The position numbers were made by a program, and so were the translations under genes. 64,000 bases of DNA from Candidatus Multivoradales bacterium. GTDB lineage: Bacteria > Acidobacteriota > Thermoanaerobaculia > Multivoradales > Multivoraceae. Positions 31,422-38,923 of this stretch are shown here, piece after piece. The notes under the pieces were generated by a model, which was not told where the DNA came from, did no database searches, and worked only from the letters and a program-made list of their open reading frames with translations. Numbering within the stretch: the first letter of the stretch is position 1; each line of letters opens with the position of its first letter. Where the stretch lies: the NCBI GenBank assembly GCA_965223325.1, contig CBDCWI010000001.1, forward strand, positions 384,001 through 448,000, given 5' to 3'.

Positions 31422-31952
31422 ATGATGCGCGTTCCCCGCCCCGCCAGCCGAAAACAAGGTGGCTTCACCCTGATCGAGCTGCTCGTCGTCGTCGCCGTGA
31501 TCGGCATCATCGCCTCGATCATGATCCCCAGCTTGATGTCCGCGATCCAGAAAGCCAAGCAGAAGCGCACCATCGCCGATATCAAGCTGATCGGCAACGC
31601 CTGGATGGGCTGGTTGACCGATGAGGTCGGGGCCGCAGCGGCCGGCGCGCCCCAGCAGTTCGAATGGGACCAGTTCACCCAGAAGACGGTGCCCGAAATG
31701 CAATCGCTCTTGATCCCCCAGTACATGACCGAGATTCCTACCAGGGATGGCTGGCGCCAGACCTACGGCTTCGGCATCGCCAGTGATCTCGAATCGCCGA
31801 TACCGATGGCGGTGCGCTCGAGCGGTTCGGACCATGAGTGGGAGGGCGACACCTACACCACCGGACCCTTCCCCGCCAACCGGTTCAGGAAGGACATCGT
31901 CTGGGCGGGTGGCTACTTCGTCCGCTGGCCAGAGGAAAGCAAAAAGGAGTAG
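31422..31952 (+). CDS. Type IV pilin / GspG-like prepilin
   Basis: Class III signal RKQGG|FTLIELLVVVAVIGII. GspG-like DGW...RSSG.D segment. Confidence 0.9.
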   Translation: MMRVPRPASRKQGGFTLIELLVVVAVIGIIASIMIPSLMSAIQKAKQKRTIADIKLIGNAWMGWLTDEVGAAAAGAPQQFEWDQFTQKTVPEMQSLLIPQYMTEIPTRDGWRQTYGFGIASDLESPIPMAVRSSGSDHEWEGDTYTTGPFPANRFRKDIVWAGGYFVRWPEESKKE

Positions 31953-32560
31953 CTGGGCTCGTGGTCTTGGCGGCCTCTGTAGAGCGGTCCAAGGTTGGAA
32001 TGGCGGTGCTGTTGGAGGAGCGACCTCCACATGTGGCTGGGCGTGTACCACGAGCCCAGCTACCGTCACATCTGCGGCGCAAGCGCTACGCAGCGACGGC
32101 CGGCTTCAAGCGCGCTCGCCCTCCACAGGCGATCAAGAACTGCCAAGGCACCGGCGCGCGCCGCGGATTCTTGCCCTCGTGAAACCAGCTGACCCGGCTC
32201 TCCACTCATGAGCGCGGGCGGCCTCTCTAGAGCGGTCCAAGGTTGGAATGGCGGTGCTGTTGGAGGAGCGACCTCCACATGTGGCTGGGCGTGTACCACG
32301 AGCCCAGCTACCGTCACATCTGCGGCGCAAGCGCTACGCAGCGACGGCCGGCTTCAAGCGCGCTCGCCCTGCACAGGCGATCAAGAACTGCCAAGGCACC
32401 GGCGCGCGCCGCGGATTCTTGCCGTCGTGAAACCAGCTGACCCGGCTCTCCACTCATGAGCGCGGGCGGCCACTGTAGAGCTGACTTTGGTTTGGTGGGC
32501 GGTGCTCTTGGAGGAGCGACCCCAACATGTGGCTGGGCACGTACCCCACGAGCCCTCGCT
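31949..32560 (+). repeat. Array A: 248-bp tandem repeat (2 near-identical units plus a degenerate partial third) with terminal inverted repeat
   Basis: Units start at 31969, 32217 and 32465; units 1 and 2 differ by about three substitutions. 31949-31965 is the reverse complement of 32047-32063. Confidence 0.93.
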
Positions 32561-32583
32561 TCGTTCACTAGCTGGCTGCCTCC

Positions 32584-35567: not shown

Positions 35568-37433
35568 CTACCAGCCGCAGGTTCGGCCCTCGTTCTGCTC
35601 GGTCAGCCAGGCCTCGAGCGGTGCGAAGTAGTCGAGGATGGCGCTGGCGTCCATCGCGCGGCTGCCGGTCACGGCTTCGAGAGCGTCCTGCCAGGGCTCT
35701 GACGAACCCATCGCCATCATCTCGCGTAGCTTGGCGCCCGCCTCGGCGTGACCGTAGATCGAGCAGCGATGAAGCGGCCCGTCGTAGCCGGCGACATCAC
35801 AGAGGGCGCGCTGGAACTGGAACTGCAGGATGTGGGCGAGGAAGTAACGCGTGTAGGGCGTGTTCGCCGGGACGTGGTACTTCGCACCGGCATCGAAGTC
35901 TTCTTCGCTGCGTTCGACCGGCGCGGCGACGCCCTGGTACTTCTCGCGCAGCTCCCACCACGCCTGGTTGTACTCGTCGGGACGAATGTCGCCGGAGAAG
36001 ACACCCCAGCGCCACTGGTCGACCAACAGGCCAAAAGGCAGGAAAGCGACTTTCTCGAGCGCCATGTTCATCAGCAGGCCGAGGTCGGCTGAAGCCGGCG
36101 GCTCTTCATCGATGAGCCCCAGGTTCTCGAGGTAGGCCGGGGTGACCGAGAGCGCCACGGTGTCGCCGAGCGCTTCGTGGAACCCGTCGTTGGCGCTGTC
36201 GCGAAACAGGACGTCCTGATGGCGGTAGGCGAGTTGGTAGAAGTTATGGCCGAGCTCGTGGTGGATGGTCGAGAAGTCTTCGGCGTTGACGTCGATGCAC
36301 ATCTTGATGCGCACGTCGTCGTCGTAGTCGATCTGCCAGGCGCTGGCGTGGCAGACCGCCTGGCGATCTTCCGGCTTGGTGAGCATCGAACGTTCCCAGA
36401 AGGTCTCGGGAAGCGGCTCGAAGCCCAGCGAGGTGAAGAATCCCTCACCGGTCTCAACCATCGACACCGGGTCCTGCCCGGTCGCTTGAAGGCGCTCACT
36501 CAGGTCGTACCCCGGGTCGGCGGCGGGCGGAGCGACCAGGGAGTAGACGTTGCCCCACGACTGCGCCCACATGTTGCCGAGCAGGTGCGCCGGGATCGGC
36601 CCGTCTGCCGGCACGACATCGCCGTACTGGTCGCGCAGGCGGGCGCGCACGTGACAGTGCAGTTGGTCATAGAGCGGCCGGACCTGCTCCCACAGGCGAT
36701 CGAGCTCGGCGGTAAAGGCTTCGGGCTCCATGTCGTAGCCCGACCGCCAGAGATCGGCAACGTCGGAGAACCCGAGGTCCCGTGCGCCTTCGTTGGCGAG
36801 CTCGGCGAAGCGCTGGTAGAGCGGGCGCATGTCGCGCGAGGTCGTGCGCCAGCCGGCCCAGGCTTCGGCGAGCGCCTCGGGGTCGCGGCTCTGGTCGATG
36901 ATCGTTTCAAGGTCTTCGAGCTCCTGGCAGGAGCTCTCGCCATCGGGGCAGTACTTGCCGGAGCCGTACATGCTCTCGAGCTTGGAAGCGAGCTCGGCGA
37001 GTTCACTCTGCTTCGCTGGGTCCCGAGGGGCGGGCAGAGTCTGGCCGGTCTTCAAGATGTTGAGCTTGCGCGCCTCTTTCGCCGGAGCTTCGGCTTCGTC
37101 GAACTCGGCGGCGGCGGCGGCGAGATCGGCCGCCAGGCCCAGCAGCTTCTCGTTGGCTGCGGCGGCGGCGGCAGTGTGCTCGGGCGTGATGTCGGTCGCC
37201 ATTTGCCAGTCGGCCTCGGAGGTCTCGATCCCCGCCTCGAGCAGACGCTGTTCCGCAGAGCTGAGGAACTCGCTGAGCGCGGGCGACGCGACCTCTGGGT
37301 CGACGGAATCGGTGGGGTCGGCGGGCGAGCAGGCCACTACGACGGTGACCGCGAGTGCGGTGACCGTCAGGCGGCCGAGTGCCCGTGCCGAGGACACCGG
37401 GAGTTGCGAAACGGCGCGTGAAGGATTGATCAT
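35568..37433 (-). CDS. M2 peptidyl-dipeptidase A (ACE-like) lipoprotein
   Basis: [44 protein letters not shown]. Lipobox-like VVAC and AGGAAGG RBS. Confidence 0.95.
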
Positions 37434-37527
37434 GAAGGCCTTCCTTTCAACCGTCTGGAGCGGTGCGAGAACGTTCTCCATCGGGCGGTTCATGGGGTTT
37501 CCCGCAGCCTATCGAAGCCCTGCCAGC

Positions 37528-38923
37528 CCGCGTGCCACCCGGCGTGCCGACGAAGGAGTTCTCCCCCGACCTGCAGAGTCTCGCTTCGGCCGAAGACCCG
37601 TAGGTGCCCGCGGCCATACCCAGACGATCCTGTCCTCTCTCGAAACAACCGTTTCAACGAGCCACGAATCCGCCGCGCGCAACGGCCCACGGCAGGCTGG
37701 TACCGCAAGTGCCCCGGGCATGTCCCGGGCGTTTCCCGGGCGTTTCCCGGGCAATCGACTGGGGTGGTTCTGGGATTTCGCGGCACGAAAACCACTATCG
37801 CCACGGACTGCTTGCGCAGCAAGGGTGACGGCTAGCGGTCCGCGTGCTACACGACCTGCCGAAGAACCCACAACGCCACTCCAACCCACAGCCTGCCCCC
37901 AACAAGCACACCGAAACGGAGAAAACCCCCGACCTGCGCACTCTCACTTTGCTCGATCAAACAGGAGCCCGCGGCCACACCAGACGATCCTGTCCTCTTT
38001 CGAAACAACCGTTTCAACGAGCCACGAATCCGCCGCGCGCAACGGCCCACGGCAGGCTGGTACCGCAAGTGCCCCGGGCATGTCCCGGGCGTTTCCCGGG
38101 CGTTTCCCGGGCAATCGACTGGGGTGGTTCTGGGATTTCGCGGCACGAAAACCACTATCGCCACGGACTGCTTGCGCGGCAAGGGTGACGGCTAGCGGTC
38201 CGCGTGCTACACGACCTACCGACAGACCCAGAACGCTACTCCAACCCTAAGCCCGACCCCACCAGCACACCGAAACGGAGAAAACCCCCGACCTGCGCAC
38301 TCTCACTTTGCTCGATCAAACAGGAGCCCGCGGCCACACCAGACGATCCTGTCCTCTCTCGAAACAACCGTTTCAACGAGCCACGAATCCGCCGCGCGCA
38401 ACGGCCCGCGGCAGGCTGGTACCGCAAGTGACCCGGGCATCTCCCGGGCATTTCCCGGGCAATCGACTGGGGTGGTTCTGGGATTTCGCGGGTCAGAGGC
38501 CTGTGGCTGCTTTGACCCAGGGCGAAGAGCTCACGAGAACCGCCACCGCTGCGCACTGCTTGCCCGGCAAGGGTGGCGGCTAGAAGTCCGCGTGCTACGA
38601 CCTGCCGAAAAACCCAAACGCCACTCCAACCCACAGCAGGAGCCCGCGATCACACCAGACGATCCCAGTCCTCTCTCGAAAAAAGCGTTTCAACGAGCCA
38701 CGAATCCGCCGCGCGCAACGGCCTATGGCAGGCTGGTACCGCAAGTGCAGGGCGAAGAGCTCACGAAAATCACGATCGCCGCGGACTGCTTGCGCGGCAA
38801 GGGTGACGGCTAGCGGTCCGCGTGCTACACGACCTGCCAAAAACCCACCACGCCACTCCAACCCACAGCCTTCCCCCAACAAACACACCGAAACAACGGC
38901 CGCCAAGCACGCGGACCGCTAGC
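37528..38923 (-). repeat. Array B: about 360-bp tandem repeat (4 units plus a degenerate partial) with terminal inverted repeat
   Basis: Anchor CAGACGATCC at 37621, 37981, 38340 and 38656 (periods 360, 359, 316). Internal 11-bp CCCGGGC repeats. 38809-38826 is the reverse complement of 38906-38923. Confidence 0.93.

Follow-up and report, generated by a model that had tools for sequence, protein, structure and literature searches.

The window, a stretch of 64,000 nucleotides from a Candidatus Multivoradales genome, contains two long-unit tandem arrays on opposite strands, each behind a gene. One may therefore ask if these two arrays belong to one family and how their units come to lie at gene ends. 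We compared array A with the reverse complement of array B. Unit 2 of array A aligned at 71% identity over 157 columns (BLASTN E 6.5e-11), and the Smith-Waterman score between the arrays was 58, as against 20.1 +/- 2.3 (maximum 32) in 1000 dinucleotide shuffles. All six blocks that the initial annotation had named as shared sit where it placed them and on the strands it gave, and both arrays do run co-directional with the upstream gene. As it had also noted, units are near-identical within an array (245/248 for array A; 342/359 for the two left units of array B) and strongly diverged between arrays. Its periods were reproduced, at 248 for array A and 360/359/316-317 for array B, but array B is a mosaic in which three of four units contain an inserted second repeat family, R2, and its long periods are partly due to this insert (Table 1). 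That annotation did not pick up that the element docks on a stop codon and opens with an inverted repeat matched to the host, nor did it pick up the intron or the R2 copies nested in array B.

Table 1. Positions of the features of arrays A and B in the window.
Feature	Position	Strand	Details
Array A, upstream host gene	31422..31952	+	prepilin-type N-terminal cleavage protein (TIGR02532 over cut-off)
Array A, host TAG stop	31950-31952	+	outer end of stem 1
Array A, stem 1 left arm	31949..31965	+	1 coding base + TAG + 7 variable bases + conserved 6-base core
Array A, stem 1 right arm	32047..32063	+	core + slot; perfect 17-bp reverse complement of 31949-31965
Array A, conserved GTCAC box	32065-32069	+	after stem 1 right arm
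Array A unit 1, stem 2	32074..32164	+	arms 32074-32085 (2-base bulge) and 32155-32164, 69-base loop
Array A unit 1, empty intron site	between 32079 and 32080	+	
Array A unit 2	32217..32464	+	248-base tandem copy without left arm; empty intron site between 32327 and 32328
Array A, degenerate partial third unit	32465..32555	+	
Array B, upstream host gene	38919..40025	-	phosphotransferase-like fold, weak matches under cut-off only
Array B, host TAG stop	38921-38919	-	inside stem 1
Array B, stem 1 left arm	38906..38923	-	2 coding bases + TAG + 7 + core
Array B, stem 1 right arm	38809..38826	-	perfect 18-bp reverse complement of 38906-38923
Array B unit 1	38655..38923	-	complete, uninterrupted
Array B units 2-4	37617..38654	-	without left arm, each broken by R2; right cores 38596, 38208, 37848
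R2 insert in array B unit 2	38431..38517	-	about 25 bases of flank in common with the R2 copy at C2:1050558-1050643, 94% over 86 bases
R2 insert in array B unit 3	38072..38143	-	replaces about 14 bases of the unit
R2 insert in array B unit 4	37712..37783	-	

A profile search of the genome found 199 units at 68 loci. Two of the sequences matched in a scan of the window had served to train the profile, and those matches are not independent evidence. With the first profile, 63 loci comprised 44 arrays and 19 single units. Median identity was 98% within arrays and 67% to the nearest neighbor at other loci, the best neighbor reaching 81%, which bears out the earlier idea of a core that amplifies locally in tandem. 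The proposed core of about 200 nt is indeed genome-wide, but the element is longer than the part common to arrays A and B, measuring about 230-250 nt from its start at the stop codon. Its 3' end is conserved and followed by variable tails, and the element has an extra 130-base 3' module. Loci diverge by about 40% and still keep conserved blocks at fixed spacing, the core has few indels, and the tree is star-like. Across 38 loci, conservation in the core had no 3-base periodicity (permutation p 0.80) and stop codons were present in all six frames, in agreement with the earlier argument against coding. These results confirm that arrays A and B are members of one non-coding repeat family.

As in REP and BIME elements, the units are extragenic, multicopy and near gene 3' ends, and 59/63 loci are co-directional with the upstream gene. 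The host genes are functionally unrelated and presumably include recA, lexA and argG-type core genes. We saw no leading/lagging bias, loci occurring on both strands along one skew direction, and no adenine-specific mutagenesis in the family. A tRNA reading TAG was not found in the genome, and array A contained no sense-strand terminator or promoter pattern. The comparison with Rfam that the initial annotation had proposed gave three covariance-model matches to the repeat unit, all far under the gathering score.

Stem 1, the 17-18-bp inverted repeat that opens each locus, was found at 57/68 loci, with 893/912 Watson-Crick pairs. Its outer end is formed by the host stop codon and 1-2 coding bases, and these are mirrored locus-specifically inside the element, in what we call the slot. 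The right arm of array A was predicted to fold with the left arm. The host stop codon was in exact register at 39/58 loci, and at 53/58 loci it lay 3-14 bases before the core; the slot also matched host stops that are TGA or TAA (4/39 loci). At arm positions 17 and 18, which were not used in selecting stem 1, complementarity was seen at 55/57 and 36/57 loci, and at position 19 it was at the chance level (6/57). Permutation of the flanks gave 48/50 against 16.2, 32/50 against 13.9, and 6/50 against 8.7. The match between slot and host is a sharp 4-5 bases. The last-codon and TAG bases are host sequence because an element-free paralog with 94% identity has the identical last codon and TAG. At the site orthologous to array A in G001, a genome of the same genus, the gene and its TAG are present and the element is absent.

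There is a target bias, the last codon beginning with two A/T in 21/35 cases against 226/1565. The base before TAG at 50 loci was C (20), G (16), T (12) or A (2), and TGA, TAA and TTG also occur in place of TAG. These 50 loci have 45 different 7-base spacers, almost all perfectly mirrored, and the stem 1 loop is 73-82 bases at most loci, with subsets at 59-61 or 3-4 bases. Two sister elements, C1:819942 and C1:824162, are 82% identical; their 7 bases are the same but the outer five differ, each slot matching its own flank. Mismatches do occur: both outer slot bases at C1:65448 mismatch the host, internal tandem units retain mismatched left arms, and the C1:291702 copy behind a duplicated gene has four unrepaired mismatches. 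On the transcribed strand, the 19 mismatches include 12 A-C and 3 G-T. The antisense strand was predicted to be more stable at 12/54 loci, and there was no strand preference. Target-site duplication was not systematic (6/57 against 2.6 shuffled). In 22/44 arrays the duplicated unit starts 66-107 bases before the right core, that is, in or beside the left arm; one array has exact 3'-end-to-TAG junctions, and 24/39 units end in R-A-A-C.

The bulged stem 2 is 98% paired, with 17 double changes scattered over the tree and no one-sided changes (0/500 shuffles). The reverse transcriptase that the initial annotation had suggested looking for proved to be inside the repeat, in a group II intron that occupies one fixed site of stem 2 in 13/14 copies, antisense to the host transcript. 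The intron matches RF02005, a domain I model, at 180.6 bits, its RT/maturase ORF matches TIGR04416 at 342.6 (over the 300 cut-off), and EBS1 at intron position 184 is the single complement of the 6 exon bases of IBS1. Domain I, ORF and pairing identify it as a group II intron, which we take to be of class E. The genome holds no other reverse transcriptase family (14/14 matches), and the intron is far younger than the repeat family because its 14 copies are 99.9-100% identical. The repeat family is best read as having secondarily become a safe landing site for this intron. RmInt1 reportedly homes into repeated elements. Group IIC-attC introns likewise sit around the 3' arm of a DNA hairpin and are oriented against transcription, but their target is attC, whereas here it is a non-attC repeat (PMC7923331, in part). 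Another family of the same order has a related intron, there within a long-hairpin repeat that is unrelated to this one.

We searched the genome for an enzyme that might move the repeat. A RAYT-like gene (C1:1306044-1306784) is flanked by R2 and not by the stop-codon repeat family, so the REPtron arrangement, in which the same repeat flanks a RAYT gene, does not apply to this family. The transposase that the initial annotation had proposed looking for beside other copies was not seen: none of the 28 Y1 contexts holds a transposase gene flanked by the family. One of the 28 has a repeat unit nearby, and that Y1 element has its own terminal repeats. None of 1229 tblastn matches of the 28 Y1 proteins overlapped a unit, and the units do not match the terminal repeats of Y1 genes as they would in TIRtrons or TIRYTs. 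The repeat profile had no matches at IS110, IS3, IS91 or Y1 ends, leaving the repeat without the link to a known IS end or coding fragment that would have spoken against the initial annotation. Like IS91-family elements, the repeat has one fixed and one leaky end and no target duplication. Comparison with oriIS/terIS gave a four-base resemblance only; the single IS91-type gene in the genome is broken, with no repeat unit beside it and no profile match near. No DUF559 candidates were found in the genome, and the GIY-YIG candidates amount to one 610-aa gene. An integron integrase is present, but the attC sites of the true integron (C2:3.807-3.83 Mb) are its own and unrelated to the repeat, and it contains no repeat unit.

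The search of related genomes that the initial annotation had suggested did not recover the family. BLAST of the unit found it in 0/40 relatives and the covariance model in 0/60. The stem 1 pattern had one match in 1/400 genomes of the class, and a control pattern also matched single genomes; the stem 2 pattern had at most two matches per genome in 18/400, like its control, and 56 in this genome. A genome-contig collection gave one match, in a coding region without inverted repeat, a viral collection one match without inverted repeat, and a plasmid collection none. The 36 metagenome matches had neither stem 1 nor stem 2 (best model E 0.013). All search patterns were built from this genome and may miss diverged homologues; among the genomes searched, the family is known from this one only. 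In literature covering few subscription journals, we found no description of the repeat family or a host-mirroring slot, nor of group II intron homing to REP-like repeats.

Several known systems share parts of this design. E. coli BIME-2 and atypical BIMEs with TnpA-REP are intergenic, with tandem copies alike at a locus and variable between loci, and E. coli BIMEs have a bulged stem, are targets of other mobile elements and diversify before amplifying (PMC3333891, in part); the unit here is 230-250 nt, asymmetric and has a second stem, with no short self-palindromic REP pair, and none of its copies has a cognate transposase next to it. Among REPINs, those of Pseudomonas fluorescens SBW25 also have inverted arms separated by about 70-110 bases, show compensatory changes and form tandem clusters that include flank (PMC3116915, in part), and here too two inverted arms at a fixed distance form a hairpin. 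In those REPINs the outer 16-mers are invariant, whereas in this family conservation is confined to the inner 6 bases, and the outer 11-12 differ from locus to locus and run into host sequence; the variable spacers and the 3' module depart from invariant arms in a symmetric element. GTAG-tagged REP head-head dimers place TAG-bearing termini on stop codons between unidirectional or convergent genes, and acidobacterial TIR-flanked Y1 genes (TIRtrons) have been described (PMC3733652, in part). Here the arms are not self-palindromic and have no constant 5' GTAG, the tag varies (C/G/T before TAG, TGA, TAA, TTG) and is mirrored inside, the stem has 13 bp and an 80-base loop, and the family is unrelated to the terminal repeats of the genome's Y1 elements. 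IS200/IS605 elements have a 4-5-base target immediately 5', matched internally 5' of an imperfect hairpin, and make no duplication (PMC3479197, PMC8266576, both in part); the match here is simply antiparallel, differs at nearly every locus and has no linked tnpA.

The family may well be a mobile repeat of REP/BIME/REPIN type that is non-autonomous and travels as folded single-stranded DNA, with a HUH (Y1-type) transposase acting in trans, a reading that we favor tentatively and at somewhat under an even chance. The transposase would now be lost or no longer recognizable. The slot would act like the guide of IS200/IS605 and REP systems. Its match has the 4-5-base length of guide-target pairing, known from IS200/IS605 and put to the test with REP transposases (PMC3479197, PMC8266576, both in part). 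A copy would go in immediately 3' of any site to which its own slot is complementary, with a preference for A/T-A/T-C/G-TAG, and copies landing at gene ends would be retained. Arrays could grow by nick-primed strand displacement or by hairpin-provoked slippage starting in the left arm. A nick-primed model exists for E. coli BIMEs, which are identical within and divergent between arrays (PMC3333891, in part), and both tandem REPIN clusters (PMC3116915, in part) and GTAG ends providing TAG stops (PMC3733652, in part) are described. In array B, the family would also serve as a landing site for the RAYT-linked R2. The initial comparison with REPIN/BIME elements thus holds for how the repeat appears to work, but not for short self-palindromic arms flanking a cognate RAYT.

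The genome's wealth of HUH elements counts for the HUH reading. The lack of a cognate transposase gene flanked by the family counts against it, as does the absence of near-identical loci, which is unlike a faithfully copying element, yet the stems are 98% perfect despite about 40% divergence between loci. By gene calls from a simple caller, 35/40 TAG targets are true stop codons, although such stops make up just about 14% of the TAG sites where insertion would be harmless, or 17% when the preferred hexamer is counted, and a DNA-only guide does not explain this excess. The mismatched slot at C1:65448 also speaks against a guide. The IS608 guide directly adjoins the foot of its hairpin, whereas the slot here lies about 9 bases before stem 2. 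That the family is a new type of miniature single-strand element, its target set by a short variable internal slot, its copies diversifying strongly at each jump and its landing site being a stop codon in exact register, is possible but doubtful.

The same class of mobile element could instead have its slot rewritten, with the nascent strand folding back at or after insertion to copy the left arm and 1-2 host bases into the slot. This is unlikely but deserves attention. Template switching from arm to arm, of the kind found in the "melting-pot" rolling-circle origin, would re-perfect both stems while loops mutate. This would agree with an IS91/Helitron-like geometry, in which the end by the target is fixed, the far end is leaky and the target is not duplicated. 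The many mirrored spacers, the double swaps of stem 2 and the sister elements all favor rewriting, and palindromes of circovirus origins are regenerated by template switching (PMC2690592, in part). The complement of the R-A-A-C ends resembles the terIS tetranucleotide of IS801/IS1294 (PMC13181058, in part), but four bases are short enough for chance. The mismatches kept in internal units and at C1:291702 show that correction is not continuous, and slippage at random would not be expected to yield the fixed boundary of 11-12 bases. A host-selected cis-acting 3'-untranslated RNA, whose stem hides the stop codon until the ribosome opens it and so tunes mRNA stability, termination or read-through, would account for the co-directional loci, the position of the stop before the core and, by selection in place, the conserved blocks and spacing. 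We consider it improbable: the excess of A-C over G-T mismatches is the opposite of what RNA stems tolerate, stem 2 has no one-sided G-U changes, and whole-unit folding gave z of about -0.1 on both strands. The unrelated hosts, the absence from G001 and 60 relatives, and the missing TAG-reading tRNA and sense-strand signals in array A point the same way. The structured-RNA array envisaged initially is therefore weakly supported at best, with no Rfam match and with stem variation confined to Watson-Crick swaps, almost no G-U being seen on the transcribed strand.

It is quite improbable that the repeat is a short retroelement copied in trans by the intron's reverse transcriptase, with error-prone copying causing the divergence. 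That enzyme family is the only one of its kind in the genome and the tree is star-like, but the intron is too young, sits antisense in the unit as a guest, and adenine-specific mutagenesis is missing. Attachment sites of an integron, as empty attC-like cassettes or a dispersed superintegron, would recall the hairpin over the stop codon, the bulged stem, the integrase and the antisense intron of IIC-attC type (PMC7923331, in part). The chance of this is slight, as 0/54 left flanks carry the R'' consensus of an R''/R' core and the integron's attC is unrelated, with no repeat unit in its cassette array. The presumed core genes among the hosts also argue against it. A decayed gene fragment or known IS end might explain the few indels of the core; it is hardly credible, being largely refuted by the frame, tblastn and profile results.

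How REPs disseminate is poorly understood (PMC8266576, in part), and the family bears on how REP-type elements choose sites and on why they are so frequent right after stop codons. In this family the target is written into every copy, with a sharp 4-5-base boundary, so reading a guide and copying a target make opposite predictions for about 57 natural examples. Three layers of parasitism meet in one place: the repeat, the RAYT-linked R2 inside it and a group II intron that homes to it. If the family is indeed such a new type of element, the 57 loci would be a natural record of retargeting or target copying by a HUH enzyme, and hairpin repeats of this kind would be the specialty of the intron lineage. 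Of four sequencing runs compared with the window, three yielded short pieces alone and no empty site; at array A itself, one contig of the fourth skips one 248-base unit, which may reflect strain variation or assembly collapse.

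Arrays A and B were proposed in the initial annotation to be one diverged non-coding family, and this was upheld. Unit 2 of A aligned to reverse-complemented B with 71% identity over 157 columns, scoring 58 compared with 20.1 ± 2.3 (maximum 32) for 1000 dinucleotide shuffles. All of the sequence blocks it named were found in the arrays, and its periods of 248, 359 and 316 correspond to our 248 in A and 360, 359 and 316-317 in B. Conservation had no 3-base period (p 0.80, 38 loci) and there were stops in all six frames. Comparison of the repeat with Rfam gave no match near a gathering score. 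In a genome of the same genus, the orthologous site of array A is empty, with ~30 bases separating the two genes. A contig from run X4, which sequenced another sample, covers window 31792-33356 and lacks a single 248-base unit of this array (A), which may reflect strain variation or assembly collapse. A long tandem array at window 60079-62240 is unrelated to this family; it has a period of 468 with sub-periods of 228 and 240, and seems to be a coding repeat on the minus strand.

Coordinates of the arrays, their stem 1 arms and other tabulated features
Feature	Location	Strand	Description
Array A	window 31949-32555	+	tandem repeat units
Array B	window ~37617-38923	-	tandem repeat units
Array A stem 1 arms	window 31949-31965 with 32047-32063	+	17 bp, perfect
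Array B stem 1 arms	window 38906-38923 with 38809-38826	-	18 bp, perfect
Chromosomal integron	G000:C2:3807261-3830000		integrase above cut-off; adjoins tRNA-Sec
Repeat in genome G427	L184, L186-L195, L198		~35-bp hairpin, locus-variable outer arms, ~105-base loop; intron copies in 3' arm

The suggestion of a genome-wide core that amplifies locally in tandem also held in the source genome (G000, with contigs C1 and C2; 6.69 Mb, 98% complete), in which the window is C1:384001-448000. Iterated nhmmer with a first profile gave 190 matches at 63 loci (44 arrays, 19 singles). A second profile, which takes in the 5' end of the unit and was run after group II intron sequence was taken out, detected 199 units, which are spread over 68 loci and together cover 44.6 kb. 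Units within an array have a median identity of 98% (236 pairs), and nearest neighbors between loci a median of 67% and at best 81% (51 first units). The family tree is star-like, and none of its branches is strongly supported. Using queries derived only from G000, we did not find the family in 40-60 relatives, in 400 genomes of the class or in genome, metagenome, viral and plasmid collections.

The repeats are docked on host stop codons. Using a simple purpose-made gene caller, we found the upstream gene co-directional with the repeat at 59 of 63 loci. Stem 1, the inverted repeat opening each locus, could be located at 58 of 68 loci; of these, 53 have a stop codon 3-14 bases ahead of the conserved core, and in 39 the distance is exactly 7 bases (35 TAG, 2 TGA, 2 TAA). 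The in-register TAG is a true stop at 35 of 40 loci compared with ~14% of harmless TAG sites, and the last host codon starts with two A/T at 21 of 35 loci compared with 226 of 1565 genome-wide. Host C-termini at these loci appear natural, and a 94%-identical paralog lacking the repeat has the same last codon and TAG, diverging two bases later. This identifies the stop codon and the bases preceding it as host sequence.

The left arm of stem 1 begins with 1-2 coding bases and the stop, continues with 7 variable bases and ends in a 6-base core; its reverse complement follows ~80 bases later as the right arm, then a conserved 5-base box. Stem 1 is present at 57 of 68 loci. Over the 16 arm positions used to select it, 893 of 912 pairs are Watson-Crick; mismatches on the transcribed strand were 12 A-C, 3 G-T and 4 other. 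At the unselected positions 17, 18 and 19, pairing was found at 55, 36 and 6 of the 57 loci. Permuting flanks among 50 loci gave expected values of 16.2, 13.9 and 8.7 for these positions, compared with 48, 32 and 6 observed. The right arm contains a slot that mirrors the host. The variable segment took 45 different values (50 loci). In one subfamily several loci have these 7 bases in common, indicating that they travel with the element, and the outer bases follow each host.

Stem 2, further downstream, has 10 bp and a 2-base bulge and encloses a 68-base loop. Across 35 loci 98% of cells were paired, with 17 double changes and zero one-sided; 0 of 500 shuffles reached this and every slid control was far lower. 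The main G-C/C-G swap requires 9 changes on the tree, unclustered, and probably had more than one origin. The predicted pairing probability of stem 2 is only ~0.4 on either strand, and structure outside both stems is not unusual (z ~ -0.1, 19 units per strand). Conservation stops ~20 bases past stem 2, leaving variable tails. One subfamily has an additional short C/G-rich hairpin ahead of stem 2, whose pattern had 24 of 31 matches within profile-called units. Base composition across all units is strongly strand-skewed: the host-sense strand has 8794 T and 4636 A, and opposite-strand loops are A/C-rich.

For 22 of 44 arrays, duplication starts in or next to the left arm, 66-107 bases ahead of the right core, so that internal units mostly lack the left arm, as in A and B. 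Exact 3'-end-to-TAG junctions occurred in one array, and we found no systematic target duplication at repeat loci. Mismatched arms persist in internal units, and one copy, located behind a duplicated gene, has decayed to four mismatches; thus, stem repair is not continuous.

Eleven split profile matches revealed a 1910-base group II intron (RF02005, TIGR04416), which we take to be class E. G000 has 14 full copies, 99.9-100% identical, 13 at the same position in a stem 2 arm and antisense to the host gene, and one ectopic. A 3' fragment is present in one more unit, and an apparent scar of intron loss in one unit. Six exon bases at the site have one complement inside the intron. Of 1797 occurrences of the 7-base minimal site, 119 fall in units, compared with 71 of 72 for the 12-base site. 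All intron sites within the window are empty. At its 5' end (G000:C1:63421 and 13 other copies) the intron departs from the usual GUGYG consensus, with seemingly one extra base, and does so identically in all copies. A related intron (62% protein identity) occurs in G427, a genome from another family of the order. Both of its copies sit in a different, REPIN-like repeat with long locus-variable inverted arms (~12 loci), and several copies of this repeat lie shortly past ORF ends. The 7 intron copies in genome G301 (54%) had no such shared 3' flank. One related copy, at L173 (G301:C21), is just upstream of a possible CRISPR array of short direct repeats.

A second repeat family, R2, built of a unique 30-base head and a run of 11-base units, has three copies in array B (window 37712-38517), the only ones of 32 pattern matches in G000 near the main family. 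R2 also lies on both sides, in direct orientation, of a RAYT-like gene (PF01797 above cut-off, NF047646 at 67 bits, below its cut-off of 80), gene and flanking copies together spanning G000:C1:1305886-1306908. One array B copy has 25 bases of flank in common with a distant copy, suggesting that R2 may move together with flank.

The main family works like BIME/REPIN. On the defining features tested it falls outside that group, lacking the constant tag, palindromic arms and a REPtron. TAG termini acting as stops have been described (PMC3733652), but the sections of that paper compared describe no variable mirrored slot. The family did not pass the tests for attC identity, although G000 carries an integron, whose attC sites are its own. 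This integron is an array of short cassettes with IS110 fragments, and several of the cassettes look like toxin-antitoxin pairs.

The fixed 5' end at the stop, the host-mirroring slot with its sharply bounded length, the two stems, 3' tails that vary, lack of duplication, local amplification and guests are observed; the proposed mechanism is that the repeat would be mobilized as a folded single strand by an HUH enzyme acting in trans. The slot would be read as a guide through a 4-5-base match to the host target. This match is as long as the guide-target pairing of IS200/IS605 and the GTAG guide in REP systems (PMC3479197, PMC8266576). We consider guide reading plausible, at slightly under an even chance. 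Sections on BIMEs describe the same array pattern with a nick-primed amplification model (PMC3333891), and one on REPIN clusters a similar pattern (PMC3116915). The slot could instead be rewritten through template switching, an unlikely account that draws on PMC2690592 and PMC13181058.

Guide reading and rewriting share their difficulties. We found no cognate enzyme linked to the family in G000, and neither explains why true stop codons are hit so precisely. A further point against both is that stems perfect at 40% divergence require either mutagenic jumps or in-place selection. In-place selection keeps an RNA function in play as an explanation, improbable as we consider it.

Long Y1 (HUH) elements of several families, bounded by terminal inverted repeats, are clustered at the contig end and in a matching region (G000:C1:2126000-2144000 and C2:4455000-4488000). 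The contig starts (G000:C1:1-60000 and C2:1-50000) carry two to three nearly identical copies of a prophage-like block.
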